A stretch of 64,000 bases of DNA from IMG/VR virus record IMGVR_UViG_3300026484_000248, positions 34,711-98,710 of that record; one strand, written 5' to 3'. The notes under the pieces were generated by a model. That model searched no databases. It saw only the letters and a program-made list of their open reading frames with translations, and was not told where the DNA came from. The stretch's first letter is position 1. Each line of letters starts with the position of its first letter. This DNA comes from a virus (taxonomy: Duplodnaviria; Heunggongvirae; Uroviricota; Caudoviricetes). Shown here in pieces: positions 10,708-48,298 of the stretch. Position numbers and translations under genes: made by a program.

Positions 10708-10799
10708 TCTTAATATAAGTATATGTTTTATCCTGAAGTATTTTACTTCAGGTTTTCTTTCTCTTTCCTAATGTTATAAATAATATTAAAAGGAAACTT

Positions 10800-13959: not shown

Positions 13960-14925
13960 TTCTTTCCTTTATAAAAATAAAAATTCAATATTATTAATAA
14001 ATCTCTTTACAAGATTTAACTTTATTTGATATTGAATTTTTATATTTATTGAATATACTACCCTATGTTAAGGTATCGCTTCCTTAATGTTTTCGTTAAT
14101 TTTGCGACTTGAAATCCTCTTCATCCGGCCATAGTGATATTACTTTAGTAATTGTCTTAAAAAGTTATTTTTTTAAGAATTTACTTAATTTTATTTCTGG
14201 TTATTCTCACATAATTTGTATATTTACCTATTATCCTGCCTGGATAATAGGGGCTATATTTAGCCGCTTAGTGGTGAGTAACTAGCCTTTCATCCCTTTG
14301 GACTTCACTGCAAAACCTCAATCCATTCTCGCGCATTAATAGACACATTACAGCATTAACTGCTCCATTGCTGGACTACGCGTAGACGCCTACTTTAACT
14401 CTAAACTATCTGATAACCTGTGTCTTAATTGGGCGATAATTATAATAAAGCGAACTTTTCATTCTATTTTGTAAACACTAAGTTTAAGTACTTTTTGTAT
14501 TCTTTGTTATACCCTTATACCGTTACTCGACGTTATCTTTTACGATATTAATAGTTTATACTAAGATTTACTTAATAAATGATAGGAATGGAGAGATTTG
14601 AACTCATCAACCTTCGGATTTAAGTTCCGCCGCTCTACCTTTAGAGCTACATCCCTATAACTTTTAAGAGCATCTGTTTGTAAACTTCTCTTAAAATTAA
14701 GTGTTTAAGTGTTTAAAATATATCTTAATCTTTCATTGAAATCATTCTTCTGAGTAACTATACGGTGACTTTCTATAATTCTATCTTTTACTCTGTTAAT
14801 AAGATTTCATAATGTAATTTATACTACTGAGTCTGTTTCAACTCTAATATTTTTAGGTAGAGATTTGTTTCTAATTTTAGTCTTACCTATACTACCGTAT
14901 TCCTTATAAATATCTTTTGTTGTCT
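13960..14925 (-). other. ~1 kb non-coding island, locally GC-elevated and hairpin-rich; transcribed leader / candidate structured ncRNA(s) containing the tRNA-like gene
   Basis: No ORF of 60 aa or more exists on either strand; the composition shifts toward GC; it contains the perfect hairpins CCTATTATCC-TGCCT-GGATAATAGG (about 14230-14255) and GGCTA-TATT-TAGCC; an early-type promoter on the minus strand at 14926-14950 points into it. Confidence 0.4.
14583..14656 (-). tRNA. tRNA-like gene (acceptor 7/7 bp, D-arm 4 bp with GG, T-loop TTCAAAT, short variable arm); anticodon loop reads ACUUAAA, giving an apparent anticodon UUA (ochre-suppressor-like); possibly degenerate
   Basis: The minus-strand sequence is AGGGATG-TA-GCTC-TAAAGGTA-GAGC-G-(G)CGGA-ACTTAAA-TCCG(A)-AGGTTG-ATGAG-TTCAAAT-CTCTC-CATTCCT-A. 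The acceptor stem is fully paired with one G.U; the T-stem has only 3 Watson-Crick pairs; C33 is unusual. Confidence 0.5.
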
Positions 14926-16746: not shown

Positions 16747-17355
16747 TTATTTGCCTTCTTTTTCTTTTTTATCTGAATCTTTTTCTTTTAACTTAAGTTT
16801 AGCCATCGCTTTACCTACTAATGTTCTGTATTCGTCTCTTGCCTCTGAACTACTGCCCCAATTAGTATCAAGTGATTCAACAGCTTCATCTTGAAATTTA
16901 AAAGCAAAATCCATAGCAGGAAGCAAATTTAAGTCCAGATTTTCTACACTATAACTTAATGTTATATGGGGTTTATAATCATCAAATTCCGAAATAAATT
17001 TATATTCTTGTACAAGCGCTTCATTTCGTTTAAGTAAATCTTGTGAATTTATTTCTGCAACTAATGCATCTTTATTTTCCCCAAATAGATTAAATTCTTT
17101 GAAAGTCCCTACTGCAGTATATTCAGCTGGTTCAATTTCCTCAACTTGTGGTTTCTTAGAATAAATTAAGCTGCAATGTAAATCCGTATTAATCTTTTGG
17201 CCTTTAAGATATTTTTCTTGATATTCTTTTACTGCCAGTTCAGTTTCCTCTGATAATTTAACCGATATATAAACCCCGTCCGGAAAATGAACCTCTTCAT
17301 GTTCTTCTCCGGTTTCTATATTATTTTCAGTAATATATTGTCTAAAGGTTACCAT
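16747..17355 (-). CDS. 2H phosphoesterase family protein (LigT / 2',3'-cyclic phosphodiesterase-like)
   Basis: It carries two H-x-T/S-x motifs (DLHCSLIY and KPHITLSY) with the spacing typical of the 2H superfamily. Confidence 0.5.
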   Translation of the reverse strand: MVTFRQYITENNIETGEEHEEVHFPDGVYISVKLSEETELAVKEYQEKYLKGQKINTDLHCSLIYSKKPQVEEIEPAEYTAVGTFKEFNLFGENKDALVAEINSQDLLKRNEALVQEYKFISEFDDYKPHITLSYSVENLDLNLLPAMDFAFKFQDEAVESLDTNWGSSSEARDEYRTLVGKAMAKLKLKEKDSDKKEKEGK

Positions 17356-17600
17356 TATAAATAGCCTTTATCGCCTGGTTTAAAATGTCCTTTGTTAATA
17401 TTTTTTTCCCAATAAGCTTTAATTTTATCATTAGTAGCTCTATCTGAAAGATTAAACCCTCTATTATTAGAATTTATTAATGATGAATAAGTAACATAAC
17501 CACTATACTTATCAGCATTTTTCAATATTTGCTCTAATTCCTCATCTGTTGGAACGGGTTTTTTTGATTTCTCACTTATGTATTCACTAAATTTTTGCAT
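17355..17600 (-). CDS. hypothetical small protein
   Basis: It is an 81-aa ORF with coupled start and stop codons. Confidence 0.35.
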   Translation of the reverse strand: MQKFSEYISEKSKKPVPTDEELEQILKNADKYSGYVTYSSLINSNNRGFNLSDRATNDKIKAYWEKNINKGHFKPGDKGYL

Positions 17601-17635
17601 TTTAATTCTCCTTTATTATTATTTATAGAAAGCTG

Positions 17636-18094
17636 TTACGAACAGCTTTCACAAATATAATTGTCTCCACCTTCTTTTTCTTGTTTTAAATAATAACTTG
17701 TTTTTACTCCTAATTTGAATCCATATAGATGCAATTGAGTTAATTCTAAAAGACTATCGGGTTTTGTGATATAAGTATTAATACTTTGCGCCTGGTCAAG
17801 CCATTTCTGCCTAACTGCTGCATTTTCAATTAAAATAAATTGATTACAACCAAAGCTTCTTTTGTAGAATCTATTATTTATTCTAAAATTTGGAACAAGA
17901 GTCGGTATTGTTTGGGTTCCTTCTTCTTTATAAAAGAAGTCGGCAATTGGTTCTATACTTTCTGTTGCATTACATGCTTTCCCACTTGTATTATGACTTA
18001 TACAACCATTACTTAGTGCATATTCATGCACTTCAGGAACCTTTATATCCCAAGTATGTTCTGTTAATCCATCTGTTATTTTTTTAATTTTCAT
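17636..18094 (-). CDS. nrdA: nrdA fragment 3: C-terminal intein-2 segment (about 35 aa, ..VHEYALSNGCISHN) fused to the NrdA C-terminal extein (TSGKACNATESIEP..HLYGFKLGVKTSYYL..CESCS)
   Basis: The extein aligns with the E. coli NrdA C-terminus (ESIEP, HFYGWKQGLKTGMYYL, terminal Cys pair); the intein blocks F/G end in HN followed by Thr +1; it is in the same frame as 18647..19630. Confidence 0.7.
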   Translation of the reverse strand: MKIKKITDGLTEHTWDIKVPEVHEYALSNGCISHNTSGKACNATESIEPIADFFYKEEGTQTIPTLVPNFRINNRFYKRSFGCNQFILIENAAVRQKWLDQAQSINTYITKPDSLLELTQLHLYGFKLGVKTSYYLKQEKEGGDNYICESCS

Positions 18095-18114
18095 ATATTT
18101 TCCTTTATTATACC

Positions 18115-18372
18115 TTATTGTTCTTGGGAGATTTCAACAATCTCCATATTTTCATCCAAGTCCGCGACTTGAACCCAACCCTCTGAACCATCTTTATATT
18201 TAACAAGTAATTTATGATTAAGTGTGAATTTATAAGAACTTCCATCTTCAAATTCAATTTCCCTAACAGGTTGTTTGCCATTATACCAGATTTTAGTTAC
18301 ATTTTTATCACCAAATCTCGTAGGAATAGTTATTCCCTTTTTTATATATTTACTAACTTTAATTACCTTCAT
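18115..18372 (-). CDS. Hint-domain (intein N-terminal splicing region)-like 85-aa ORF lying between nrdA fragments 2 and 3, in a different frame
   Basis: It has a block-B-like GSSYKFTLNHKLLV (G..h..T..H) and a GWVQVADLDENMEIV segment like intein 1 (GYVQAKELLKTDKL); it has its own RBS and ATG; it lacks an N-terminal Cys. Confidence 0.45.
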   Translation of the reverse strand: MKVIKVSKYIKKGITIPTRFGDKNVTKIWYNGKQPVREIEFEDGSSYKFTLNHKLLVKYKDGSEGWVQVADLDENMEIVEISQEQ

Positions 18373-18646
18373 ATTTTTCCTTTATAATATTTAATACTTC
18401 TTGACTTTTAAAAAATTATTCTCATTACTCCATATTTTAAAAATCTCAAAACTATTATCTTTCGCTAATTTTATTTTTTCATTTTGTATTTTTAAGATTT
18501 CTTCTGAACTTCTTTTACTTTAAGGACATTCCCATTCTTTTATATTTGGATGACAATGAATACATCATAATAATTATATTTAATCATTTTACGCCCACTT
18601 AACTTTATATCCATTTATAAAAATGAAGTAGTAGGCACAATTAAAA

Positions 18647-19630
18647 TCATATATATACTATATCCATACCTTCACAAATTTCCCCTGCTGTTATTTTTAC
18701 TTCTATATTATTTTTTAATATAGTTACTTCTTTATGAGTAGGTATATGCTTAATGTCTCCATTTTCTAAAACAATTCCTATATATTCGGTTTTAAAATCT
18801 AACCATTGTTGGGTTTCTTCATTCATTATTTTATTATAATCTATATTAAAATCATCCATAATATTTTGTAAGGATTTAATGCCTTCATTAGTTTTAATTT
18901 CAGTTTTCATTTCAGAACAGGCGGTTGGAGCTATGGCCATCAGAGCCGCATTTCTTAAACCAGTTACTTTAATTTTTTCTCTTAATTTGTTCCATCTGTC
19001 CATTTTAGGTAGATAATCAGTTAAATTAACTGTTTCTTTATTTGCTAAATCAATTGGTAAAATACCCTCAGCCCATTTTGTTTCGTAGAATTTTTCAAAT
19101 TTGCCTTTTTCCTCTGCTAATTCAGCACTAACTGAAATAATTATATAAGATAAATCATCAAATAATTTGTCTGTTTCTTCTAGTGCCTCTTGTGTATCAA
19201 TAATAATTTCTTTTAACGCTAAGTAATTTGCAAAGTTAAGAACTCCAATACCCAAATATCTATACATTAAGTTTGAATTTTTACCTTCTTTTACTGGATA
19301 GTTAGCAACATCTACAGTATTATCGAGTCCTCTTACAAGAGTTCTAATTAATTGCCATTTTTGTCCTTCATCCATATAAAACCATCTTTCAAGATTTACT
19401 GAACTAAGGTTACATAAAGCAATTTCACCTGCTGTATATCTTTTAACAATTCTTTTTTCTCCATTTTCCATTGTAAATAATTCTTCATTAATTAATTCCG
19501 ACGGTCGTGATGGAAGTACTATCTCTGTGCAGTTATGTACCAGTATATCATTTGCATAAAAATTATGGTTATCTTCTACAGTAATATCATATACAGGCAT
19601 TTCCTCTTCTAAATATTCTATTTTAATCAT
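18647..19630 (-). CDS. nrdA: nrdA fragment 2: C-intein-1 (MIKIEYLEEEMPVYDITVEDNHNFYANDILVHN) + middle extein (CTEIVLPS...LMAIAPTA, about 204 aa) + N-terminal piece of intein 2 (CSEMKTEIKT..., about 90 aa, ends TGA)
   Basis: The extein matches NrdA CLEIALPT..LCTLS.NL..LGIGV.NFA..GILPID..GLRN..ALMP; intein block F/G lies before the catalytic Cys; the start codon has an RBS. Confidence 0.75.
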   Translation of the reverse strand: MIKIEYLEEEMPVYDITVEDNHNFYANDILVHNCTEIVLPSRPSELINEELFTMENGEKRIVKRYTAGEIALCNLSSVNLERWFYMDEGQKWQLIRTLVRGLDNTVDVANYPVKEGKNSNLMYRYLGIGVLNFANYLALKEIIIDTQEALEETDKLFDDLSYIIISVSAELAEEKGKFEKFYETKWAEGILPIDLANKETVNLTDYLPKMDRWNKLREKIKVTGLRNAALMAIAPTACSEMKTEIKTNEGIKSLQNIMDDFNIDYNKIMNEETQQWLDFKTEYIGIVLENGDIKHIPTHKEVTILKNNIEVKITAGEICEGMDIVYI

Positions 19631-19645
19631 CTTTTTTCCTTTATT

Positions 19646-21274
19646 TTATTTATATTCTTTAACATAAACCTTGTTGCCTGAATCATATATTTTTCTATAA
19701 CCATTATTATGCATATTTTCTGCTTCAGTAACATCTGGATTAAAAGTTTCTAATAATCCTTTTAACTTATGTTTTTGGAACTTATTTCTAGACCATAGTA
19801 TGTTTTCTTTAGGATGGAAATAAAAATAGTTAGGTGTAGTATTATATTTAAAAGTGAAGCCTGATTTTATATAGAAATTACCTGTACTCCATCTTCTATT
19901 AGCGTAAGATAAAAGACTTTTAGGTTTATACGTTTTCTCGAAGTACTTAAGCATTCTAGAACCTCCACCTTGTATAGTATAACCTTTTTTAGTGCAGAAC
20001 CTAATAAGTTCATAATCTATATTTTTATTAAACCTAGGCTTACCAAAAGTCATTATAGACATTAGGTTGTCTTCATGATACATTCCTATTTTTATAGAAG
20101 AGTTGCAGTATCCCTGCATATGGTTATCATCAATAAATTTTCTAGCTTCCTTAGTTGGTACTTCTTTTATACTACATTTTCTAGCTCCTATTTTTTTATT
20201 TTTACTTAATTTATCTTCTATCATAGAAACCCATATAGATTTTTTATTTTTATCTAACCATTCATTTTCAAATATATGGAATAGTTGTATTCTTTTTTCT
20301 TCACAAGCTTCAGTTTTAATAAGATGGTAGTTTTTATTTTTAAATTTATTAGAATGCCAATATAAACCATTATATTCAATGGCAAAATTATATTCTTCAG
20401 AATACATATCTAATTCATAAGGTTTTATTATTTTTCTATTATCATATATAAATAAATCCTTAAATAGGGCCTTCATATTATCTGACACCTGTCTACCTAT
20501 TCTTGAAACACTAGAAGCATAAAAACTCATGTTTTTAAAAGCATTATAAGTGCAATTAAAATATTCACATGCAGTATAAATATCAAAATTTTTATTTAAT
20601 ACAAAGTGTTTAATTATAAATGTTTCATTAAAATTATTTAAATTATTAAAATGTTTTCTGGAAGAATTTTTATTTCCACTAAAATCTTTTTTAAAAGAAT
20701 CTAATTGAGCATAACTAGAAACACCATATTTTTCCATCATAGTATTATGAATTTTCTCTTTATTATTATAGTTTTTATCACCATATTTTTCTAATTTAGT
20801 TTTCTTGCTTTTTTCTATATTATTATAGTTTTTATCACCATATTTTTCTAATTTAGTTTTCTTGCTTTTTTCTATATTATTAATACTTGACTGATGGGTA
20901 TTATTAGATATCATAGTATCTTGTGCTTTTTTTCTTGATTCTTTAGACTGTGCTTTTTTAATCACCTTATTATGAATAGTCTTATCCTGAAAAACACTTA
21001 CATATCCGTACTTTTCTAACATTGTTTGTTGAGTCTTTTTAATTCTATTAAGTTTACTACATTCTTTACAAGTTTTATTATACCCTTTATTTAATGAAAT
21101 AAATCGTTTTTTATTGCCACAAGAACATAAACTATCATTATTATAAAAGTCCCATATGAACTTACTAGGTTCTTTCATATAATTTTTTTCTTCTAATGTA
21201 AAAGTGTGATTATTATATCTTCTGCTTTTTTTATTCCAAATAAGATCTATTTTTTCTTTTAATTCTTTTGTCAT
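19646..21274 (-). CDS. free-standing homing-endonuclease-like gene inserted inside nrdA intein 1 (same family as 8341..10113 and 57414..59135)
   Basis: It has N-terminal Cys4 zinc-ribbon modules, a 57-bp tandem in-frame duplication (KTKLEKYGDKNYNN x2), EYNGLYWHS, and a C-terminal module about 90% identical to 8341..10113; it is in the same frame as both flanking nrdA pieces but separated from them by TAA codons. Confidence 0.6.
   Translation of the reverse strand: MTKELKEKIDLIWNKKSRRYNNHTFTLEEKNYMKEPSKFIWDFYNNDSLCSCGNKKRFISLNKGYNKTCKECSKLNRIKKTQQTMLEKYGYVSVFQDKTIHNKVIKKAQSKESRKKAQDTMISNNTHQSSINNIEKSKKTKLEKYGDKNYNNIEKSKKTKLEKYGDKNYNNKEKIHNTMMEKYGVSSYAQLDSFKKDFSGNKNSSRKHFNNLNNFNETFIIKHFVLNKNFDIYTACEYFNCTYNAFKNMSFYASSVSRIGRQVSDNMKALFKDLFIYDNRKIIKPYELDMYSEEYNFAIEYNGLYWHSNKFKNKNYHLIKTEACEEKRIQLFHIFENEWLDKNKKSIWVSMIEDKLSKNKKIGARKCSIKEVPTKEARKFIDDNHMQGYCNSSIKIGMYHEDNLMSIMTFGKPRFNKNIDYELIRFCTKKGYTIQGGGSRMLKYFEKTYKPKSLLSYANRRWSTGNFYIKSGFTFKYNTTPNYFYFHPKENILWSRNKFQKHKLKGLLETFNPDVTEAENMHNNGYRKIYDSGNKVYVKEYK
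20764..20877. repeat. 57-bp tandem in-frame duplication inside endonuclease gene 19646..21274
   Basis: tattatagtttttatcaccatatttttctaatttagttttcttgcttttttctatat is repeated twice and encodes IEKSKKTKLEKYGDKNYNN x2. Confidence 0.8.
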
Positions 21275-21322
21275 TCTTTTGATATCCTGGCAATTATTTT
21301 ATATTTTACTAACTTTGGGCAT

Positions 21323-23014
21323 TTATTCTTTTATATTTAATTTATCTGTTTTAAGCAATTCTTTTGCTTGGACATAACCCCTATTTTCAGTCCATATTTT
21401 ATGTTCGGGAGTACAAACAATATTTTTACCCGTTTTTTCATCAATAATTTTCATTACTCTTGTTTTGGGGTTTGTCATAGCAAAATCTGTAACTATTTTA
21501 TATTCAACTTTTTTAAGTTTTGTATTATATGATTTCACTTTGTCGCCTATTTTAATGTCCTTAAGTTCTTTTGTCCCTTTTTCGGTTTGTACTTTAGTAT
21601 CACCTTTTAAACATAAATTTGAACTACCAATATATCTATTAAGCATTGAAGTGTTATTAACATTTTCTTCATGGAACAAATATATATTACCAGTTTCTGT
21701 TCTTTCTTTCATCATCTTTTCCCAAAGATCTCTCGCTTTAATTTTTTTCTTTTTGATATTTGTTTTATTACTGTACATTTCATAATTTTTATTAAATTCT
21801 TCTCCAAATACACCAACCAATAACGGAGTATCTTTAGGGTCAAATAACCACACTTCTTCATCCATTTCAACTGCATCCAGAAAGTTTTGATTCATTTTCA
21901 TTGCATATTGTAAACCTCTTGCCCTATTTTCATCAGTACCACCATTACTTTTAAGTGATAAAATATCAGTAACATCTAAATGCCACCAAGAGAAGTAAAT
22001 TGCAAGGGCACCTTGCCTTTTCCCGCCTTGATTCCAAGCTTTCATAATACTTTCAAAGAATTTCATAAATGGTACAGGCCCAGAACTATAACCTTGAGTT
22101 CCTTCAATATAACTTCCCCCAGCTCTCATCGCTGTAATATCTAATGCTGTTCCACCTTTAAATTTTGAATAAATTCCCAGGTTTTTACCAGTATCTAAAA
22201 TATTATGACTATCATCTGCTAAAGTATTTAATACACAAGAACTTAATTGCTGCCCAGGAGTTAAAGCATTTAACATAATTGGAGTAGCAACAGTATATTG
22301 ATGTTGTGAAATAGCATCATATAATTCAATCATTTTTTGAACTCTGTTATCCTTTTCGTCAATAGTAAGTGCAATAGCAACTCTCATATAAGATATTTGG
22401 GGTAATTCTAATTTATTTCTTTTACTATAATTAAGACAATACTTATCAAAAAATGTTACAAGTGCTTTATAATTAAAAATTAAATCTCTTTCAGGGTTAA
22501 TTGCAGTATTTAATTGCTGTATTTCATCTTCAGTTAGTTTATTAACTGTAAATTTATCGTAAATTTTCTTTTCAATCCCTTTAGTGAGGATATCTTTTAA
22601 TTCTGGATAAGTATTATGGTCACTTATGTTATAAGTTTCTTTATAATATTCAAGTAATTGTAATTTTGCCGCTACTTCTTCCCACATTGGATTAAGCATA
22701 CTGATTTTATTAACTGCAGTAATGATTAATTGCTTGTACATATCTTTAATATGAATTTCTTTATGTAATTTAACCTTAGTATCTCTGAGTAATTCCTCTT
22801 TCATATATTGATTTGGGCAAGACCAATCAACTACTTTATCTAATTTCTTTGGATGGAAAGGTTCTTTATGTCCTTTCCTTTTTATAATAATTATTTTTGA
22901 TGCTTTTATTTCTTCTTGATTTGAAATATCAATATTTTCCTTATTTTCTACTGCCTGAGACAAAGTGCCTAAAGGCACTTTGTTATATCTTTTTGCTTTA
23001 TTCTTATTACTCAC
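21323..23014 (-). CDS. nrdA: nrdA fragment 1: class I ribonucleotide reductase alpha N-terminal extein (about 467 aa, ends ...IGSSNL) fused to the N-terminal half of intein 1 (CLKGDTKVQT...GKNIVCTPEHKIW..., 96 aa)
   Basis: It has the ATP-cone and RNR large-subunit motifs; SNL is followed by an intein block A (CLKGDTKV) and block B (TPEH) and then a TAA stop; the following catalytic Cys (CTEI) lies in the next fragment. Confidence 0.8.
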   Translation of the reverse strand: MSNKNKAKRYNKVPLGTLSQAVENKENIDISNQEEIKASKIIIIKRKGHKEPFHPKKLDKVVDWSCPNQYMKEELLRDTKVKLHKEIHIKDMYKQLIITAVNKISMLNPMWEEVAAKLQLLEYYKETYNISDHNTYPELKDILTKGIEKKIYDKFTVNKLTEDEIQQLNTAINPERDLIFNYKALVTFFDKYCLNYSKRNKLELPQISYMRVAIALTIDEKDNRVQKMIELYDAISQHQYTVATPIMLNALTPGQQLSSCVLNTLADDSHNILDTGKNLGIYSKFKGGTALDITAMRAGGSYIEGTQGYSSGPVPFMKFFESIMKAWNQGGKRQGALAIYFSWWHLDVTDILSLKSNGGTDENRARGLQYAMKMNQNFLDAVEMDEEVWLFDPKDTPLLVGVFGEEFNKNYEMYSNKTNIKKKKIKARDLWEKMMKERTETGNIYLFHEENVNNTSMLNRYIGSSNLCLKGDTKVQTEKGTKELKDIKIGDKVKSYNTKLKKVEYKIVTDFAMTNPKTRVMKIIDEKTGKNIVCTPEHKIWTENRGYVQAKELLKTDKLNIKE

Positions 23015-27523: not shown

Positions 27524-28042
27524 TTAGTCACGCTCAGACCCGTTTTTGTTTTTTTTAGAAATTACTCCATCATCAACTGCATTAAACATATCAACTTCTG
27601 CTTTATGCCCATCTTGTGTAGTTGTACTAAAAACCTCAACTCCTTCTATTGATTCTAATCTTTTATTAAAATCATTTATATCATTTCCTCTTTTTAAGAT
27701 CATAAATTCATCTCCACCAATTCTAAAAATTATACTATCTTCAAACTTTTCTTTCAAATCATTAGCAACTTTTTGAATAAATTCATCACCCGCTTCAAAT
27801 GAAACATCTCTATTTAATGCATGCAATCCATTTAAGTCTACCATTGCCAATATAAATCTATGTCCGAATTCTTTATAGGAGTACCACATTTCATCAAATC
27901 TATCATTAAAATCTGATCGTCTTAATAATCCTGTCAAACTATCATACTTATAATTTTTGATTATAAGTCGCAATTTTTGTACTTCCTGTTTTAATTTTGT
28001 ATTTGTCTTTTCCAAATACTCATTCTTTTCCTTCTGTGTCAT
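27524..28042 (-). CDS. GGDEF-domain protein (putative diguanylate cyclase; N-terminal coiled coil)
   Basis: YDSLTGLLRR..F...F......AMVDLNGLHALNRDVSFEAGDEF...RIGGDEFMIL carries all GGDEF catalytic-core hallmarks with an intact GGDEF; no RxxD I-site is present. Confidence 0.6.
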   Translation of the reverse strand: MTQKEKNEYLEKTNTKLKQEVQKLRLIIKNYKYDSLTGLLRRSDFNDRFDEMWYSYKEFGHRFILAMVDLNGLHALNRDVSFEAGDEFIQKVANDLKEKFEDSIIFRIGGDEFMILKRGNDINDFNKRLESIEGVEVFSTTTQDGHKAEVDMFNAVDDGVISKKNKNGSERD

Positions 28043-28076
28043 ATTGATTTCCTTTTAATTTTATTTATAGAAATGG

Positions 28077-29528
28077 CTATGATAAATTCATAGCCATTTC
28101 TTTCATTTCTAAACATCTTTCAAGTGTATCTGTTGTATCTTTGTCGCTTCTAAATTCAATAAATCTTGGATGAGATAATGCGTATGTTTCAGATCCTCTT
28201 GCTTTAGTAATATCATTAAATTGAACTGTAAAAACTTTTCCAATATAATTGTTTCTATTATTGTTAATTTCTTCAAGCATTTCATCAGTAAAACCTGAAG
28301 TGCTTCCTTTAATTGTTCCTTCATCATTTTCAAAAACTAAAGAACCGAATGTTTTCTCCCTTTTAGTACCTGGTGTTCCTTCAATAAAACCTACTACTCT
28401 CATTTCAGCATCAATCTCAAGTTTTAATTTTAGTTGCGTTTTGCTAGTTCCATCTTTATAAACATTTCCAAAATCTTTAAGAATTGCTCCTTCTAAACCT
28501 TCTTTCATTTTTTCTGAAGTAAATTCATAAGCTTCTTTAAGATTATTTACATTTTTATGTTCTATAACTCTTATTTGATTAGAATCAACTCTTGAAATAA
28601 TACTTTTCAATTTTTCAAATCTTTCAGAATAAGGTACTTTAGGTAAATTTTTCTTATCTTTTAATCCAGCTAATTGATAATCTCCAGAAGTTACAAAATC
28701 CCAAACCTCAAAAACTATATTTTCATAAGGAACTTTATCAGAATTAAGTAATCCATTACCTAAACTTCTTGGTAAAATATATTCCTTATTATTTGCTTTA
28801 TGTTCATTATAATTATTAATTAATGTTTCAGCATCGTTTGTACCATTCTTTTTATCAGCTTTTTTCATTTTAGGTAAGACTAATTTTAAGATATCTTTAT
28901 CACAAATTACTGTCATTTCACCATGCAGGTATCCTTCTTCAATATTCTTTAAAACTTCTTCCAATGAAGGATATGAATAACTTTCACCACTTCTTGAAAT
29001 AAATGATGCAGAAGTTCCTGTAGTTGAACATTCTCTATATGTACCATCGGCTTTTAATTCAACAATAGCAGGAAAAGAAATATTTTTCTCAATGTTCTTC
29101 TTTGTTCCAATATCACATCTCATATAAATTGGTTTTGTTATTAAACCTTTCATTACTTTGTTGATGTTTGTTCTACCCATATTAATTTTTAAATCTCTAC
29201 CTAAAATTAATTTGATAATCTCTCTATCTGCTTCTGACATATCTTCTAAAATATCTTCAACTAATGCTATTGCAGCATTTCCAGTAACTTCTCTTCTTGC
29301 TAGTTTTTCTAATCTATCTAAACCATCTGATAAATCTCTTCTATTTTCTGAAGTACCAGCTTTTACATTTTTCATTGTAACACCAAATGAATATACTACT
29401 TTATCATAAGTCATTTTAAGTACTCTTCGCACTAAAGTGTCTGATTTATAAGCTGTTAAAGTAGCTATTTTGTCATTAGTTGAGTTTGTTTTGTTAATTT
29501 TCTCTATAAAGTTTGTGATATTTGTCAT
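28077..29528 (-). CDS. ATP-dependent DNA ligase (T4 gp30-like)
   Basis: Motif I reads ELKADGTYRE (KxDG); the length of 483 aa is close to T4 ligase (487 aa); a TGTTATAAT promoter lies 25 nt upstream. Confidence 0.7.
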   Translation of the reverse strand: MTNITNFIEKINKTNSTNDKIATLTAYKSDTLVRRVLKMTYDKVVYSFGVTMKNVKAGTSENRRDLSDGLDRLEKLARREVTGNAAIALVEDILEDMSEADREIIKLILGRDLKINMGRTNINKVMKGLITKPIYMRCDIGTKKNIEKNISFPAIVELKADGTYRECSTTGTSASFISRSGESYSYPSLEEVLKNIEEGYLHGEMTVICDKDILKLVLPKMKKADKKNGTNDAETLINNYNEHKANNKEYILPRSLGNGLLNSDKVPYENIVFEVWDFVTSGDYQLAGLKDKKNLPKVPYSERFEKLKSIISRVDSNQIRVIEHKNVNNLKEAYEFTSEKMKEGLEGAILKDFGNVYKDGTSKTQLKLKLEIDAEMRVVGFIEGTPGTKREKTFGSLVFENDEGTIKGSTSGFTDEMLEEINNNRNNYIGKVFTVQFNDITKARGSETYALSHPRFIEFRSDKDTTDTLERCLEMKEMAMNLS

Positions 29529-29540
29529 TTGTTTCCTTTT

Positions 29541-29569
29541 TTGTTATATATAATTATAACATAATAACC
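29541..29569 (-). promoter_or_regulatory. early-type promoter (TGTTATAAT on minus strand)
   Basis: The plus strand reads ttgttatatataattataacataataacc, directly upstream of the ligase ATG. Confidence 0.45.
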
Positions 29570-29584
29570 TTATGCTAAAATTAA

Positions 29585-29800
29585 TTATTCAATCTTATCT
29601 TGTGTTAATAATGGTGCTGGTGTTTTTGCTTTTAAACTTCTTCTTAATATAATCACTGGTTCACTACATATATTTATTAATCCTTTTTCCAGAAAACCAG
29701 AATCAGGATTAAATCCTTGTTCTTCAAATAATATATTACAACACAAGTTGAATAAGTTACTTCCATCTACATCTAAGTTTTTAGTATCTAAAAATCCCAT
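29585..29800 (-). CDS. hypothetical small protein
   Basis: It is a 71-aa ORF. Confidence 0.3.
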   Translation of the reverse strand: MGFLDTKNLDVDGSNLFNLCCNILFEEQGFNPDSGFLEKGLINICSEPVIILRRSLKAKTPAPLLTQDKIE

Positions 29801-29894
29801 ACATCATCTTCAGTGAAAAAGTGTGTATAACCTTTTGCCAATTCTAAAGCTATTTCTTTTATTAATTTTTTATTTGAAAGTATTCCCATTTTTT

Positions 29895-30161
29895 TTATTC
29901 CTCCTCTTCTATATCACAACAATATTCTGCATCAAACTCATTATCATATTCACATCCACATTCATCACAAGTGTATACATTTTCTTCATAATCATGTTCT
30001 GATTTTAAAGCATCATAATCATTTGGTCTCATTTCTTTTAAGATTTCTGAAGGCCAAAATCTAGTTCCTGCTATTGTAACTTCACCTTGTTCATCTAATA
30101 TCTCGTCAAATTCACTATCTGAAATTTCTTTAATTATTGTTGATTCTGTAACTGTTGCCAT
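29895..30161 (-). CDS. small acidic zinc-ribbon protein
   Basis: It has the C-terminal cluster YTCDECGCEYDNEFDAEYCCD; a promoter lies at 30175-30200. Confidence 0.4.
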   Translation of the reverse strand: MATVTESTIIKEISDSEFDEILDEQGEVTIAGTRFWPSEILKEMRPNDYDALKSEHDYEENVYTCDECGCEYDNEFDAEYCCDIEEEE

Positions 30162-30212
30162 TTTATATCCTTTTTGTTATATAATTATAACATTAATATC
30201 TTTAAAACAATA

Positions 30213-30509
30213 TTAAATAAAGTATTCTGGATTAAGCATTTCAAATATTTTTAAAGCTTTTTCCAAATTTTGAGATATTTGGATGTTAAAGTCAGCTTTT
30301 TGTGCAGAAAAAGCAATAACACAAATATCATTTTGAATTACTGGAATATCATATTCTCTTAATTTTTTTACTGAAAAATTAATAATTCTATCACTAATAT
30401 CATTATCAAAATTAATCAACTCAAATAAGAACTCATTTATTATTTCCGTTCCTATTAAATCTACAAATAATCTACTATTTTGATAACCAGCTTGTGTGTA
30501 AAAATTCAT
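30213..30509 (-). CDS. small protein of the PEYFI-tail family (ends ...LNPEYFI)
   Basis: It shares the conserved C-terminal pentapeptide with 4 paralogs. Confidence 0.45.
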   Translation of the reverse strand: MNFYTQAGYQNSRLFVDLIGTEIINEFLFELINFDNDISDRIINFSVKKLREYDIPVIQNDICVIAFSAQKADFNIQISQNLEKALKIFEMLNPEYFI

Positions 30510-30949
30510 AGGAAATATTCTGGATTTTTTCTTTCAAATAACGGTACAAAAATACTTTTGAAATCGTTCTTTAGTTCCCTTAATAAAATTGAACGCTGTT
30601 TGGCAATTGCTTTTTCTTGTTCTCTAAGTTTTTTATATAAATTCATTTTATTATAAATCTCTATATTTTCTTGAAATAATTGAAGAGCTTCTTCCTCAAA
30701 TTCAAAGGCTTCATTACTTTGAGCTACTCCAAATTCAGCAGGTCTTGTTTCATTAGTCGCTTGATATTCTTTAAATACTAAGTGCATATTTTTCCTTTTT
30801 TCTAAATTATTCCATAAACCGAGCTTTATTTCACATTCTATACAAATTTTATAATTATGTTGACTTCTCCAATTATAAGTAAATGAAGTATTTTGTTTTT
30901 CTGTATTACAAACTTTACATTTATAACTCTTACATTTTGGTATAAACAT
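30506..30949 (-). CDS. PEYFI-tail family protein with N-terminal Cys4 zinc ribbon (ends ...KNPEYFL)
   Basis: It has CKSYKCKVC...CIEC and the C-terminal NPEYFL; it overlaps the next gene by 4 nt. Confidence 0.45.
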   Translation of the reverse strand: MFIPKCKSYKCKVCNTEKQNTSFTYNWRSQHNYKICIECEIKLGLWNNLEKRKNMHLVFKEYQATNETRPAEFGVAQSNEAFEFEEEALQLFQENIEIYNKMNLYKKLREQEKAIAKQRSILLRELKNDFKSIFVPLFERKNPEYFL

Positions 30950-30958
30950 TTTCTTTTC

Positions 30959-31153
30959 CTATATAAAATATTCCGGATATTTAATTTCAAAATCACTGAA
31001 TGTTTTTCTGCCGTATTCTGTTAAAGTAATCCACCTATCTTTTTTATCATTTATTTTTATTTCATTATTTCTAATAAGATAACCTTTATTTTTAAAAAAT
31101 TTCCTCATTGCCGCTTTTGTTAAAAGTACATTTTTATATTTTCTTTTGAACAT
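30959..31153 (-). CDS. PEYFI-tail family small protein (ends ...KYPEYFI)
   Basis: It has the C-terminal motif. Confidence 0.4.
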   Translation of the reverse strand: MFKRKYKNVLLTKAAMRKFFKNKGYLIRNNEIKINDKKDRWITLTEYGRKTFSDFEIKYPEYFI

Positions 31154-31222
31154 AAATTATCTAAATCCAAATCAAATTCTTTTCTTTTATATAAATTATC
31201 TAATAATGTAATAAGTTTTAAA

Positions 31223-31504
31223 TTAAATCCCATATTCTGGATAATCCTCTTCAACTTTTTTAAGTGTTAAGCCATTGTAATTTGTACAAAGATAATCACT
31301 AACCATCGCTCTCACCAAATCTTCCGGACTTTTTAAATTATTAATTAAATGTCTTCTAACCAATAAATTCATTTCAACCGTTACTTTTGGACTTCCAAAT
31401 TCATTTGCATAAAAACTTGACGAGATTTCATTTTCTCTTACTGTTAATTCTTTTAAATAAAAACTTTCCATTAATGGTGACAAAGCTAAATCTATCGTTG
31501 ACAT
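31223..31504 (-). CDS. PEYFI-tail family small protein (ends ...DYPEYGI)
   Basis: It has a variant of the C-terminal motif. Confidence 0.4.
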   Translation of the reverse strand: MSTIDLALSPLMESFYLKELTVRENEISSSFYANEFGSPKVTVEMNLLVRRHLINNLKSPEDLVRAMVSDYLCTNYNGLTLKKVEEDYPEYGI

Positions 31505-31526
31505 CTTACTCTCCTTTATAAAAGTC

Positions 31527-32405
31527 TTATTTTACACTAAATATAAAACTTGATTTTTCATTCCCTACAGTTGTAGGAGTAACTCCATTCCATTTTTTAA
31601 TACTTTCTAACTTCAGTAATTTATCTGTAACACTTTTTGAAACAGTTTTATTTGCATAAGCCTCACTATCAGCTTTAATTTTTACAGCTTCTGCCTCACC
31701 TTTTGCTTTAGCTATTACAGCTTGAGCTTCGTTTTCCGCTTTCTTAACTAACTCAAGACTTGCTAGGGCGGTTTGTTTTGCGACTTGAACTTCTAACATT
31801 TTTTGGGTAATTTTCTCTGGTACCAAAATGTCTTTTAAATTAATTCCTACTAATGTAAAATATGGGTTTTTACTATATGAACTTTTTAATAAATCCGTTA
31901 ATGTTTTCTCTACTTCTGCCCTATGGTCCATAATTGTATCTACACTAAATTTAGAAATTGTACTTTGAACAGCTTCTCTATTTACTTGAAGGACTTTCTT
32001 ATAGAAACTGTTTTCAAAATCCCCATCTTCTCTGTACATTAAGGGCAAATTTTCTGCATTCGGTCTAACTTCAATACTTAATGCCAGCCCTACCGGAATA
32101 CCTTTCTTATCTAAACCTTTAAGTGGCGTTTCATATTGTAAAAGCTCAGTGTCTTGTTTTCCCGATTCTGACTTACTATAATTAATTAAAATAGGTCTAA
32201 TTGTCTTAATGTCCATTGTCTGATAAATTGGCACAAAAATGTGATAACCAGGTTGAACTGCTTGCATATCATACTTAGTTCCTGTTTTCATAATACCTCT
32301 ATCTCCGTCATTTACAATTGCTACTCCAGTTTTAGTTGCTATCATAATCCCTAAAATTAATAGTAAAGTAAACATTGCTCCTGTTATATAACCTAAAATT
32401 CTCAT
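31527..32405 (-). CDS. SPFH/band-7 (prohibitin / HflK/C-like) membrane protein
   Basis: It has an N-terminal transmembrane helix, an SPFH core, and an Ala/Glu/Lys-rich coiled coil (EAQAVIAKAKGEAEAVKIKADSEAYA). Confidence 0.6.
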   Translation of the reverse strand: MRILGYITGAMFTLLLILGIMIATKTGVAIVNDGDRGIMKTGTKYDMQAVQPGYHIFVPIYQTMDIKTIRPILINYSKSESGKQDTELLQYETPLKGLDKKGIPVGLALSIEVRPNAENLPLMYREDGDFENSFYKKVLQVNREAVQSTISKFSVDTIMDHRAEVEKTLTDLLKSSYSKNPYFTLVGINLKDILVPEKITQKMLEVQVAKQTALASLELVKKAENEAQAVIAKAKGEAEAVKIKADSEAYANKTVSKSVTDKLLKLESIKKWNGVTPTTVGNEKSSFIFSVK

Positions 32406-32892
32406 TTTCTTTCCTTTTTTTATTATTACATTATCTAAATGTATGTTGTTTAATGTTCTTATTTGGAAATTTTAATACCCAAATAATCCAAAACTTGATT
32501 TCTTAATAGTAAAATTGTATTTCTCTTTAATAAACTATTAGTTTTTAAAAGTAAGTTGCCTTACTAAATGGTAGTCAAACATGCTATATTTTTCTACTTT
32601 AAAACATAAAGCCATATCAAATAATTCTAGTTAATTTAATAATTTCTCCTTTTCTGTATTATATCACTTTATTTTCTATCATTAACAATACTATTAAAAC
32701 ATAATCGTCACTACAAATGTGATTCCAAATGTCTGTACTGCCCTGTTAAATAAATTTTCTGTTATTTTAATCTTTCTTTTTGTTTTAATTTCTTAAGATA
32801 ATCTCTGTTATCTTGAACCTGTTTTTCTTGAATTTTGATTATATTTTCAAGTGCCTTAATTTGTCTTTCATTCTTTTCTCTTTCTGTCTCCA

Positions 32893-33423
32893 TTATGCGC
32901 CCACCATTATTTCTCCTTCTTTAGACTTACAAATTTCCATAATTTTCCTCATTATTTTTGTTTGTCTATCAGTTACTTCTTTTCTCTCTTCTATCAAATA
33001 TTCTATTAATTCAACAGTATTCTTAACGTATTTTTTAGTTGGTCCGTCTATAACATTAGATAATCTATCTAAAAGTTTAAGCGTAAAGGCATATCGTGAC
33101 ATCTTTTCCATTTTATCTTTAAGATATTCATTCTTACCCATTAATTTACTCTGTTTTTTATCGCTTGTTAATTCAATAACTATACTTGAAACTAATGGGC
33201 CAAATTCCCTTTCTAGTTCATGATAAGTCGTTTCTGTGTCCTCTAAAGTATCATGAAGTAATGCAGCACATTTTAGCTCGTCTATATGTTTTGAAGTTCC
33301 CTTATATTTTTGAACTAATTCCATAACAATAATGGGATGCGTTACATAAGGCAATCCTGTACTTCTTCGTTCTTGACCTTTATGCTTTTCCGATGCAAAT
33401 TGAATTGCTTTAATTACTAACAT
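32893..33423 (-). CDS. HD-domain (p)ppGpp hydrolase-like protein (RelA/SpoT HD; small alarmone hydrolase-like)
   Basis: AIQFASEKHKGQERRSTGLPYVTHP...AALLHDTLEDTETTYHELEREFG matches the hydrolase-domain consensus of RelA/SpoT/Mesh1. Confidence 0.6.
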   Translation of the reverse strand: MLVIKAIQFASEKHKGQERRSTGLPYVTHPIIVMELVQKYKGTSKHIDELKCAALLHDTLEDTETTYHELEREFGPLVSSIVIELTSDKKQSKLMGKNEYLKDKMEKMSRYAFTLKLLDRLSNVIDGPTKKYVKNTVELIEYLIEERKEVTDRQTKIMRKIMEICKSKEGEIMVGA

Positions 33424-34978: not shown

Positions 34979-35590
34979 TCATTTATAATTTTCTAAGATT
35001 TTCAAACCTTCTAATGCCTTAACATTAAAACTTCTACGATGTTGTTCAGTATAACCATATTTTTTAATTGCTTCTATATGTCCTTTTGTTCCGTAACCTG
35101 CATTATTTTTCCAGTCATACATAGGATATTTTTCATCCCATTCTTTCATTCTTTTATCTTTTTCAACCTTAGCAATAATACTTGCTGCAGCAACAATACT
35201 AACTTTAGCATCTGCTTTTACAAGAGTTTCAATACCAGTTTCATAATTACATTTGCCATCATAGAGTATTTTTGTTCTATTATTTTCTTTAAAATAATCT
35301 TTAATATAAGTCAAACTATAATTACAAGCATCTGATAGTCCATTATCATCAATATAATTTGCATAGATTTCAACTACCTTGTAATCCACTATTTTAACTA
35401 CTTCTTCATAAAGTGCTTCTCGTTTTTTCTTTGACATACTTTTACTATCATTCGCAAAAGCAATATCTTTAATTGTTTTGCCTTCTTTTAAAACTGCACC
35501 AACAAAAATAAGTGAGCCTGCCAAATTTCCTCTGCCCGCTTCATCTATTCCAACATAATCCTGATACTGCGCATCTAATTCCTTAAGCAT
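34979..35590 (-). CDS. rnhB: ribonuclease HII
   Basis: It has GIDEAGRGNLAG, DSK, the IIAKVEKDKRM region and GYGTKGH..AI..YG.T..HR.SF; the start is reassigned to the internal ATG (35590) with an RBS, because the track N-terminus is a spurious extension. Confidence 0.7.
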   Translation of the reverse strand: MLKELDAQYQDYVGIDEAGRGNLAGSLIFVGAVLKEGKTIKDIAFANDSKSMSKKKREALYEEVVKIVDYKVVEIYANYIDDNGLSDACNYSLTYIKDYFKENNRTKILYDGKCNYETGIETLVKADAKVSIVAAASIIAKVEKDKRMKEWDEKYPMYDWKNNAGYGTKGHIEAIKKYGYTEQHRRSFNVKALEGLKILENYK

Positions 35591-44002: not shown

Positions 44003-44014
44003 TTATTTATATAC
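44003..44014 (-). promoter_or_regulatory. late promoter TATAAATA (minus strand) for gp13-like gene
   Basis: The minus strand reads gtatataaataata, about 20 nt upstream of the ATG at 43985. Confidence 0.4.
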
Positions 44015-46420: not shown

Positions 46421-46992
46421 AAAGGCAGCTTAATAATGACAAAAACTGATATAGAAGAATTTGTTAATCCTAATACAGGAAGACTATCAACAAGAATTAA
46501 GTCATATACCGACTTAAGTATTGAAGAATTATACTGTATATATAATGAAATAGAAAAATTTTACTTATAACAAAGTTAGGTTGATTGTAAACAAACTATG
46601 TCAAGTTAATTTTAATGTAAATGTTCTATTACATTAGAAAAATTATTAAGCTCTTTTAATAAGAGCCGTTCTATATAGTAATATATAGAATAATTAACTA
46701 TTGAATTGCTGGGATCACTTGTTAGGTTCTAATACCACAATATATCTGAAAAGAGTATATGAAGGTTTAAAAAATTAGAAATAGAGTCAATCAGCAGCCA
46801 AGCTACTAAGTCCATATAGGATATGTAGAAGGTTCAACGACTATTCCGAAAGGAAGTACACTAGAAGTCTAGTGGAAGTGGTAGTTGCCCAATGTTTGGG
46901 CAAAGATATAGTCTAGTCTTTATGGAGACATAAAGCAGTTCATAAGAGAACGGGATAAGATTAACGACCTTATTCGAATAAATCGTCCAATG
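46421..46992 (+). mobile_element. group I intron 1 (A element 46700-46813, B element 46831-46945; 5' region holds a decayed endonuclease ORF)
   Basis: GAATTGCTGGGATCACTTG...AATCAGCAGCCAAGCTACTAAGTCC (P3-P6/J6-7-like, compare Tetrahymena CAGCCAAGUCCUAAGUC) is followed by GGTTCAACGACTATTCCGAAAGGAAGTA...GATATAGTC...GGAGACATAAAGCAG (P7 ACGACUA/UAGUC G-site, P9); the terminal ...CCAATG precedes the exon. Confidence 0.7.
46436..46570 (+). pseudogene. truncated endonuclease N-terminal module (44 aa) inside intron 1
   Basis: MTKTDIEEFVNPNTGRLSTRIKSYTDLSIEELYCIYNEIEKFYL matches the N-terminal IY..Y..IE module of 63104.. and 60099.. but stops before the zinc ribbon. Confidence 0.45.
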
Positions 46993-48298
46993 TTATAACT
47001 TTTTACAATATGCTAACAAGTTATTAGTTTCAAGAGCAGTAGATGCGAATGGTACGTTTAAGGATTCAGGAAATAAAATTTATGCAGTAAATGAAGACGG
47101 AAAAGTGGAAGTTACAAACGCTCCATATTATATCCAAGTCGGTTCTGTTGTTAAATTTAATCCAGATCAAGAAAACGAATATACTGTAACTGCTATTGAA
47201 GAACCAACAAAGGCTGTAAAGCAAGTTGATAAAATTAAAATTAATGCTGCTGAAGAAGTAGATTATACTGTTAAAAATAGAAATGAAAGTGTAACTTATT
47301 CTGCTGGTTCTGATGACACAGTTGAAGATATTGCGTCTAACTTAGGTTCTTTAATCGAAAGTATAGATACAAATGCTACTAATGTTGCTGTAGATGGTGC
47401 TGTTATTACAGTTACTGCTTCAATTGCAGGTGTTGCTATGACTAATGAAATTATTGCTGGTAATATGACTGTAACTACTACTACTGAAAATAGTGAAGGT
47501 GAGTCTTACGAGCTAGTATTTGCAGATGTTAATGGTCAAACTGTTGATTTTACACAAAAAGATCCTGATGGGAATATTATAAGTGGTGCTGATATAGGGG
47601 CTCCTGTACTTGTTAAATATGCGGCTCAAAATGCATTAGTATGTGCTCCAAGAGACGGTGCCACTTTAAAAAGTGCTCACGAGTTAAAACCTGAAGCAAT
47701 TCATATTGCAAATGAAGCAGATTATGAAGTACAAGAAATGAGTATTCCAGTTACTGGAAATTCAAAACTTAAATTTATGGCCAAATCAAGTGGTGCATTA
47801 ATGAATGGTATTGAAATTGCTATCGCAAGAGAAGCAGATTTCGCAAGTGGTTCACAAAATGTTTTTAACGGACTTGTATTAAATGATTTCTTTGAAGCTA
47901 AACCTTTAGAGTCTAAGAAAGAGATTGCAATTGTAATAAGAAAAGATAAAAAAGTTACTGCTTCTTACATTGTTTCATTAATTCCGGGTTCAAAAGATTA
48001 CAGAAATAAATCAAATTATATTGAAGATATTATCAACAAATATGATGAGTTAGTTTTTGTTAAAGATAATACAAGTATTAATGATTTACCAGATTCAAGA
48101 TTATATACTGCTGCTAAATTAGCATTAGACGGTACTATAATTACTCCTGCAAGTAATAAAGTTCTTTATACTTCAAATGGTGGAGACGGTTATGTAAACT
48201 TTGGTGATATTGAATTCGCATATGGTTCAGTTTCTGATAATACTATCTTTGGTAAAAGTGCTAATAATACGGATTCTTCTCCTATTAGCTATGCTGCT
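46993..48298 (+). CDS. tail sheath protein exon 2 (about 435 codons; begins within ..YNFLQYANKLLVSRAVDANG..)
   Basis: The open frame starts at 46982; FLQYANKLLVSRAVD matches T4 gp18 FLQYGNDLRVVRAVDR directly after the exon-1 homology; it ends ...SPISYAA followed by TAA and an intron A element. Confidence 0.75.

Follow-up and report, generated by a model that had tools for sequence, protein, structure and literature searches.

The window analysed here is a stretch of 64,000 nucleotides (positions 34,711 to 98,710) of the IMG/VR virus record IMGVR_UViG_3300026484_000248, and three of its genes are the subject of this report: one encoding a compact GGDEF protein, one a small alarmone hydrolase of the HD type and one an SPFH/Band-7 protein. 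Their open reading frames (ORFs) lie within 6 kb, all on the minus strand, at exactly the coordinates listed in an earlier note on this DNA, which had read them as a functional cluster that is driven by early-type promoters and acts on second messengers of the host. By sequence comparison, each of the three genes belongs to a known family. The surrounding block consists of replication and nucleotide-metabolism genes, among them those of ribonucleotide reductase, an ATP-dependent DNA ligase (28077..29528, minus strand; Pfam DNA_ligase_A_M, 1.6e-19) located immediately upstream of the GGDEF gene, and RNase HII (34979..35590, minus strand; Pfam RNase_HII, 8.8e-31; called as 203 amino acids); the earlier assignment of ligase and RNase HII to the same block was correct. 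The Pfam matches of these genes all exceed the curated cut-offs and are far stronger than chance would give, and many relatives from metagenomes keep the genes.

The window also encodes T4-type gp13, gp15, baseplate and tail-tube proteins, a Dda/PIF1 helicase, endonuclease VII, ClpP, an M17 peptidase and a homologue of Acb1, at a G+C content of 25-34%. No near DNA match to the region was found by megablast among 50,697 phage records, and the ligase and gp15 are nearest to those of the Vibrio phage phiKT1024 group and the Campylobacter Eucampyvirinae (37-49% protein identity). The window is the reverse complement of positions 1974-65973 of a metagenome contig of 117 kb (ENA ERZ27262648 k141_24581). 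By these sequence features the source is a T4-like myovirus of 28% G+C that is uncultivated and lacks close relatives among cultivated phages.

The compact GGDEF protein and its relatives

The GGDEF gene (27524..28042, minus strand) encodes 172 amino acids that match the Pfam model PF00990 (1.5e-14, 54.5 bits against a cut-off of 23.8) and TIGR00254 (51 bits against a cut-off of 37.4). Nearly all of its 38 phmmer matches in PDB are diguanylate cyclases or other GGDEF-domain proteins. An AlphaFold2 model built from 25 homologues (predicted local distance difference test score 91) shows a single long helix (residues 3-32) that leads into an alpha/beta domain of four strands. Foldseek matched the model to 97 PDB entries at E<=1e-3, those listed being GGDEF-domain proteins, with template modelling scores (TM-scores) of up to 0.85; the top matches were the coiled-coil diguanylate cyclases SiaD (7e6g), DgcB (6ttr) and the engineered fusion GCN4-WspR (3i5c) and a phytochrome diguanylate cyclase.

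The helix at amino acids 3-32 (27947..28036, minus strand) is a leucine zipper of 3.5 heptads, predicted to be a parallel dimerisation stalk, with hydrophobic residues at positions 7, 10, 14, 17, 21, 24, 28 and 31 in a perfect a/d pattern. The heptads are kept in both the close-family and the wider-family alignments, in a fixed register that leads into the invariant Y31-K-Y-D34-x-L-T-G, and the phmmer alignment with the GCN4-WspR fusion (query residues 5-120) includes the zipper. The zipper is fused directly to the catalytic domain (amino acids 34-166; 27545..27943, minus strand), and no sensor domain is present. The catalytic domain is compact, as the earlier note had held: it is of about 133 amino acids, is shortened past the GGDEF hairpin, lacks one beta-hairpin strand and the terminal strands of the GGDEF fold in the model, and is aligned by Pfam at profile positions 2-92 of 161 only.

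The GGDEF motif itself is intact (R107-I-G-G-D-E-F113), which bears out the earlier description of an intact site behind an N-terminal coiled coil. In an alignment with DgcR, D69 is the metal-binding aspartate, N77 and D86 occupy the base-reading positions, and G109-F113 form the GGDEF hairpin; D69 and E112, which we take to be the equivalents of PleD D327 and E370, provide the metal-binding residues whose absence would have counted against an enzyme. Conservation was assessed in an alignment of 65 small cluster representatives reaching down to 27% identity, in which D69, L73, N77, G85, G110, D111, E112 and K164 are invariant and conservation reaches at least 90% at Y31, D34, L36, T37, D44, D86, R107 and F113. 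Position 86 is Asp in 59 of the 65 (91%) and Ser in one, a few members having N, S or Y. This invariance of catalytic residues across divergent members indicates purifying selection on catalysis, as would be expected of an enzyme and not of a degenerate receptor. K164 lies in the last helix, where a phosphate-binding Lys and Arg (K442 and R446 in PleD) are expected, and corresponds to the former. An RxxD inhibitory site is expected five residues upstream of a GGDEF motif; F100-E-D-S103 stands there instead, and nowhere in the family alignment is there a conserved Arg at that position.

In a study of Hypr-GGDEF enzymes, Asn339 on the sugar face of the base and position 348 on its Watson-Crick face are 9 residues apart, and at the latter position Asp enforces the use of GTP while Ser (S348 of GacA) permits the synthesis of cyclic GMP-AMP (cGAMP) (PMC6456294). 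N77 and D86 are likewise 9 residues apart, and the phage protein has Asp86 where a Hypr enzyme would have Ser. Synthesis of c-di-GMP (cyclic diguanosine monophosphate) from GTP is predicted for the GGDEF protein from its residues and model.

Among known enzymes, DgcB of Caulobacter crescentus, SiaD of Pseudomonas aeruginosa and GCN4-WspR are the best structural matches (TM-scores 0.69-0.82); they share the catalytic residues of the phage protein and, as it does, have a helical stalk that runs straight into the DxLT start of the domain. Unlike them, the phage protein is virus-encoded, has no RxxD site, no SiaC-type partner and no sensor domain, and is about 25 residues shorter past the hairpin, without an equivalent of R446. 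GGDEF proteins annotated in other phages, namely those of Yuavirus and Vojvodinavirus (152-156 amino acids), SP-15 (183 amino acids) and Bacillus phage G (Gp350), are also small, stand-alone and similarly shortened, but are only 26-35% identical to the protein in the window. The Yuavirus/Vojvodinavirus protein has an SGDEF motif and, in Yuavirus, a short N-terminal helix, and the phages concerned, which are not T4-like, are siphoviruses of 60 kb or jumbo phages of Bacillus. A link of the Vojvodinavirus protein to hyper-biofilm lysogens was drawn by its authors, without biochemical work (PMC8471281).

By a word-indexed search, 31 homologues were recovered at 56-100% identity, all from metagenomes; 28 are of 165-200 amino acids, two are fragments of 118-129 and one is of 235. 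When 1.84 billion cluster representatives were searched exhaustively with phmmer, the top 150 matches included about 65 proteins of 145-240 amino acids that align along the whole query at 27-47% identity and rank above multi-domain bacterial diguanylate cyclases. A scan of IMG/VR with the single GGDEF protein as query gave no match, whereas a scan with the family alignment gave 124 related stretches, from which 80 loci were kept; 56 of these have a stand-alone GGDEF ORF of <=240 amino acids, nearly always with RxGGDEF intact (a few have SGDEF). The G+C content of the loci ranges from 20 to 70%, and many of the contigs are of 80-235 kb. Proteins of the GGDEF fold are also present in BFVD for Bordetella phage CN1 and for the Bacillus phages G and SP-15. 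Across 185,579 representative bacterial genomes, the best of the matches listed were of 30-41% identity, and the seven inspected were multi-domain sensory diguanylate cyclases of 445-979 amino acids. Among the matches listed, compact GGDEF proteins have so far been seen as stand-alone proteins only in viral contigs. A diguanylate cyclase of "Acinetobacter phage MD-2021a" was rejected, as its neighbours are bacterial (uvrB, an aminotransferase, tRNA) and the sequence looks like a bacterial contig.

The ligase and GGDEF genes of the window are separated by 34 bp. They are also adjacent in three related loci, L007 (with overlapping stop and start codons), L009 and L017, and in L018 a partial ligase match is followed, about 950 bp downstream, by the GGDEF gene. 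This adjacency is confined to the closest clade, more distant members having other neighbours; in Vibrio phage phiKT1024 the next ORF after the ligase does not encode a GGDEF protein. Clustering of the genes within 4 kb of the 56 small viral GGDEF genes revealed neither a partner nor a receptor gene that recurs. Even the neighbour family with the widest spread is present at only 5 of the 56 loci, and thus the GGDEF gene appears to act alone.

Two further observations concern the viral contexts of the GGDEF fold. Giant ORFs of about 2,000-3,500 amino acids with an intact RxGGDEF domain occur in nine of the IMG/VR loci (L052, L067, L073, L076, L078, L083, L086, L091 and L092), mostly in high-GC viral contigs (G+C content 39-69%), and represent a quite different viral context. 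In L021, a 155-kb viral contig, a GOLLD RNA (224 bits) and about 12 tRNA genes arranged in an array (2280-2738 and 2346-5957) lie directly upstream of a compact GGDEF gene.

The alarmone hydrolase, the SPFH protein and the distribution of the three genes

The HD gene (32893..33423, minus strand) encodes 176 amino acids that match Pfam HD_4 PF13328 (2e-12, 47.5 bits against a cut-off of 27.2) and phrog_990 (6.5e-29). The best matches in PDB are human MESH1 (3nr1, 8.4e-17) and Drosophila Mesh1, followed by hydrolase domains of Rel/SpoT proteins and by bacterial small alarmone hydrolases (6yvc, 6z3n and 7qoc). TIGR00691 (spoT_relA) is aligned at positions 1-119 only, which is the hydrolase part without the synthetase domain. 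H29, H57-D58, E61-D62, D119 and N123 align with the catalytic residues of MESH1, the full set being present, and are invariant in four phage homologues; the RelA/SpoT hydrolase reading of the earlier note was well founded. Hydrolysis of the alarmones (p)ppGpp and (p)ppApp is predicted from this signature.

Stand-alone small alarmone hydrolases of the Salmonella phages PVP-SE1 and SSU5 neutralise all toxic small alarmone synthetase (toxSAS) toxins against which they were tried, and it was proposed that phages bypass alarmone-based abortive infection with such enzymes (PMC7229694). MESH1 and ATfaRel strip pyrophosphate from toxSAS-modified tRNA. The hydrolases of PVP-SE1 (PbcSpo) and SSU5 (PaSpo), ATfaRel of C. 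marina and human and Drosophila MESH1 are, like the HD protein, single-domain RelA/SpoT HD hydrolases of about 180 amino acids with the same catalytic residues. The HD protein differs in that its closest solved structure is a metazoan MESH1 and not a phage enzyme, and no toxSAS partner gene lies near it. On its sequence, it would be a further case of an already tested kind of phage enzyme. Two weak PADLOC matches of the HD protein to JetA were judged spurious, as they fall in its helical tail.

The SPFH gene (31527..32405, minus strand) encodes 292 amino acids that match Pfam Band_7 PF01145 (62.1 bits against a cut-off of 23.6; 8.9e-17), in agreement with the earlier assignment, and phrog_200, a common phage family (1.8e-37). 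Its PDB matches are prohibitin-1 and prohibitin-2 (4e-10 for prohibitin-2; aligned region 105-246). The match to TIGR01933 hflK (1.6e-8, 34.3 bits) is below the equivalog cut-off of 159.4, and the protein is therefore SPFH-like but not an orthologue of HflK. It resembles prohibitins, HflK-HflC and the proteins of PHROG 200 in having a Band_7 domain, a putative N-terminal membrane anchor (hydrophobic residues 3-23) and a C-terminal coiled coil rich in Ala, Glu and Lys, but no HflC-like or NfeD partner is adjacent. PADLOC gave no match for the SPFH or GGDEF proteins.

Between the HD and SPFH genes lies an ORF for a charged helical protein of 43 amino acids (32762..32893, minus strand), the start of which overlaps the HD stop codon. 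A homologue of 62% identity is found in L009, also between the HD and Band_7 genes. The 356 bp between this ORF and the SPFH gene (32406-32761, minus strand) contain no coding-strand ORF of >=40 amino acids and no Rfam match; in L009 the homologue directly abuts the SPFH gene.

The functional cluster proposed by the earlier note did not survive comparison with related viral loci. L007 has the adjacent ligase and GGDEF genes without HD or SPFH genes; L002 has the HD, SPFH and ligase genes, with an unrelated ORF of 281 amino acids in place of the GGDEF gene; and in a different, higher-GC phage (L003/L004) the HD gene occurs alone, at 54% identity. HD and SPFH genes are adjacent in the window and in L001, L002 and L009. 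The ligase gene and about ten unrelated small ORFs stand between the three genes of the window. Thus, from their patterns of presence across relatives, the GGDEF, HD and SPFH genes have been gained and lost independently and are not one module.

Promoter-like motifs and genomic setting

The earlier note had placed all three genes under early-type promoters, a claim that found no support. A generic sigma-70 scan of the window showed no enrichment (57 sites, with 59.7 expected) and thus does not sustain it. A phage-specific promoter-like motif of the extended -10 type, TGTTATAATWAT, often preceded by TTTAAGGTTA, was identified, which with up to one mismatch has 40 matches where 19.8 are expected; no shuffle reached 40. 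Exact copies precede eleven genes, including those of the ligase, orf88, orf111, orf190 and RNase HII (minus strand: 14930, 15562, 29550, 30181, 34298, 34943, 35613 and 39456; plus strand: 54427, 60940 and 61109), the copy upstream of the ligase reading (T)GTTATAATTAT (29550..29560, minus strand). None of the exact copies is directly upstream of the GGDEF, SPFH or HD gene.

The T4-late consensus TATAAATA occurs 35 times in the window, 13 of these 16-24 nt upstream of ORF starts. The genes that it precedes are mostly structural, among them those of gp13, gp15 and baseplate proteins (examples of the box are at 5547-5554, 7219-7226, 7225-7232, 10775-10782, 44004-44011, 50531-50538 and 61477-61484). 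One such T4-late-promoter-like box (28062..28069, minus strand) is 19 nt upstream of the GGDEF start codon, and it is not conserved in L007, L009 or L017. A 14-bp inverted repeat between ligase and GGDEF (28069..28101), spanning the ligase stop codon, came from a terminator scan of the plus strand; on the coding (minus) strand no T-run follows it. Most simply, the GGDEF gene is probably co-transcribed with the ligase gene, and a lineage-specific late promoter is possible in addition.

The Acb1 homologue is encoded at 16747..17355 (minus strand) and matches PF23474, the family of anti-CBASS (antiphage signalling system based on cyclic oligonucleotides) phosphodiesterases. Judged by this match, it shows that the phage already targets cyclic-nucleotide immunity. 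In the related phage L009, Acb1 and a protein with an Acb2/Tad1 hairpin domain occur together (17164-18012 and 18863-19087).

Other features of the window are recorded here. The large subunit of ribonucleotide reductase (17636-23014, minus strand) is spread over several ORFs that bear Hint/intein-splicing domains, with an ORF of 523 amino acids resembling DUF7487 inserted in the same region. Six group I introns on the plus strand score 73-88 bits, above the Rfam gathering score (46645-46935, 49874-50222, 51864-52170, 56276-56608, 56640-56917 and 57044-57347), forming an unusually dense cluster of about 11 kb (46645-57347) with three weaker Rfam matches on the same strand (48334-48438, 49617-49770 and 51390-51634). 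A tRNA at 14583-14656 (minus strand) is detected by Rfam (46.5 bits) and is not reported by ARAGORN.

Five small ORFs (minus strand; stops at 31223, 30959, 30506, 30213 and 40263) share the C-terminal peptide (Y/N/F)-P-E-Y-(F/G)-(I/L), which is a motif at the protein level, since the codons differ. The ORF directly after the ligase ends in the same tail, as DYPEYLI or SEYLI, both in Vibrio phage phiKT1024 and in a viral contig that is related to the window (tail-bearing ORFs in relatives: L002, 19398-20243; L016, 7440-7853). The shared tail may be a docking or degron tail; the phage encodes ClpP.

Predicted roles and alternative explanations

The explanation that we consider probable, with due reserve, is that a T4-like phage carries a minimal diguanylate cyclase, a small alarmone hydrolase and an SPFH scaffold as independent accessory genes. 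Sequence and structure establish the enzyme identities, and from these we infer the products, the constitutive activity and the physiological roles. The GGDEF protein would be held by its zipper as a parallel dimer, each half-site binding one GTP through N77 and D86 (base), D69 and E112 (Mg2+) and K164 (phosphates), and the pair would condense two GTP into 3'3'-c-di-GMP. Since it has neither a sensor domain nor an RxxD product-inhibition site, it would be active as soon as it is made, being expressed from the ligase transcript and possibly from a late-type promoter of its own. The infected cell would be flooded with c-di-GMP, and the phage Acb1 homologue, if it behaves as does T4 Acb1, which does not cleave c-di-GMP (PMC9117128), would not undo the product. 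The likeliest pay-off would be that flagella and type IV pili are switched off and the envelope altered, such that superinfecting phages are excluded and the cell is immobilised. The HD protein would remove the 3'-pyrophosphate from (p)ppGpp, (p)ppApp and possibly pyrophosphorylated tRNA, and so block the stringent response or abortive infection of the toxSAS type. The SPFH protein would be a membrane-anchored prohibitin/HflK-like scaffold, probably modulating a membrane protease or membrane organisation.

There are precedents for parts of this scheme. The YIP peptides of Pbunavirus activate the host enzyme YfiN and raise c-di-GMP, and swimming, swarming and twitching are all reduced (PMC8085984), and PlzR, induced by c-di-GMP, blocks type IV pilus assembly and pilus-dependent phage infection (PMC11461919). 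The predicted outcome for the window phage is the same, a lytic phage raising host c-di-GMP, except that YIP is a peptide of 3.6 kDa acting on a diguanylate cyclase of the host, whereas this phage would bring its own cyclase. YIP-mediated activation, which is indirect, is the only documented rise of host c-di-GMP by a phage that a literature search retrieved; the same search found no biochemically characterised phage-encoded diguanylate cyclase. Manipulation of second messengers, as the earlier note proposed, therefore holds for the GGDEF and HD proteins at the level of enzymes and precedents (PMC8085984, PMC7229694), and its formula of c-di-GMP up and alarmones down is a reasonable prediction from the sequence; it does not extend to the SPFH protein, which has no evident link to nucleotide signalling.

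Several points weigh against this explanation. Compared with bacterial homologues, the domain lacks about 18-25 residues past the GGDEF hairpin, and the position equivalent to PleD R446, at +4 from K164, is Gly here (basic in 20 of the 65 relatives, with other basic residues nearby); the missing Arg is the main structural caveat, and together the two features could impair or alter catalysis. It is the heptads that suggest dimerisation, and the compact family is known from sequence and predicted structure. No phage-encoded c-di-GMP receptor, PilZ-type gene or riboswitch was found in the window or neighbouring loci, c-di-GMP and ppGpp riboswitches being absent from the window at E<=1 and from 11 related loci at the gathering score. 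The outcome would depend on c-di-GMP effectors of the host, and the authors of the YIP study considered that a lytic cycle is perhaps too short for biofilm-type outputs (PMC8085984). Host immobilisation, surface remodelling and superinfection exclusion, although favoured, are the weakest part of the argument. For the HD protein, MESH1-type enzymes have a reported NADPH phosphatase activity as well.

An unlikely extension of the same biochemistry is that the zipper-GGDEF clade comprises always-on cyclases that large lytic phages use as an offensive or counter-defence weapon. In one version the flood of c-di-GMP, which Acb1 would spare, may jam or pre-empt cyclic-nucleotide immune receptors or keep a decoy guard of the Panoptes type silent, an "anti-anti-anti-defence" of the kind anticipated by the Panoptes authors.

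That the compact GGDEF protein makes another nucleotide (cGAMP, c-di-AMP or a 2'-5'-linked or larger cyclic oligonucleotide), an option left open in the earlier note, is improbable. Such a product could serve counter-defence, either as a decoy that silences Panoptes-type guards while Acb1 or sponges deplete host signals or by jamming CBASS receptors, and the truncated domain, the missing R446 equivalent, the N, S or Y at position 86 in a few relatives, the presence of Acb1 in this phage and of an Acb2/Tad1-like gene in a relative could all be accommodated by it. Minimal palm-domain cyclases can indeed make non-canonical dinucleotides: OptS of Panoptes, a minimal CRISPR polymerase (mCpol), is likewise minimal, sensor-less and constitutive, and its authors predict a phage-encoded counter-measure (PMC12657218). 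However, OptS-type enzymes are without a GGDEF motif, and OptS, a bacterial enzyme encoded beside its partner, the 2TM-beta-barrel membrane effector OptE, makes 2',3'-c-di-AMP, whereas the phage gene has an intact GGDEF motif, a ligase and small ORFs as neighbours and no PADLOC match. N77 and D86 are canonical and 91-100% conserved, Asp at the latter position enforcing the use of GTP (PMC6456294), and the neighbours in sequence and structure are all c-di-GMP synthases.

It has an equally low probability that the substrate of the HD protein is not an alarmone but NADPH, as for metazoan MESH1, or some other phosphorylated nucleotide. The best PDB match is MESH1, and the gene lies within a nucleotide-metabolism block (ribonucleotide reductase, ligase and RNase HII); nevertheless, the RelA/SpoT hydrolase signature is conserved in full, and both phage hydrolases that were tested neutralised alarmone-directed and tRNA-directed toxSAS toxins (PMC7229694).

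A catalytically inert GGDEF protein, binding GTP or a host protein as a scaffold or receptor in the manner of GdpS, LapD or FimX, is very improbable. Non-enzymatic GGDEF proteins are well documented, models of GdpS and LapD are among the NCBIfam matches, the C-terminal half is shortened, and the Pfam alignment stops at profile position 92 of 161. Non-catalytic GGDEF domains are normally degenerate, however, whereas here the catalytic residues are invariant or nearly so across very divergent members.

Least probable is a single signalling module in which the hydrolase frees GTP for the cyclase and the SPFH protein organises both at the membrane: the shared strand within 6 kb, the HD-SPFH adjacency and the known cross-talk between (p)ppGpp and c-di-GMP (the Foldseek listing includes PleD structures with bound ppGpp) would suit it, but each gene occurs without others in L007, L002 and L003/L004, HD and SPFH genes are not recurrent neighbours of GGDEF genes at the 56 viral loci, and HD and SPFH are adjacent only in closely related phages, where shared ancestry explains it.

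This negative result matters, in that annotation and further study should not treat the GGDEF, HD and SPFH genes as a single module. With independent accessory genes as the preferred explanation, the GGDEF protein is, by its sequence, a member of a widespread uncharacterised family of predicted minimal, zipper-dimerised cyclases, and the sequence survey indicates that a minimal, sensor-less GGDEF protein free of the inhibition site is common in viral contigs. The alarmone hydrolase would add another case to those already known in which phages counter the stringent response and toxSAS defence. If active, the compact GGDEF protein would be a very small constitutive cyclase and a possible tool, and with such proteins viruses would themselves directly write a second messenger that is central to bacteria.

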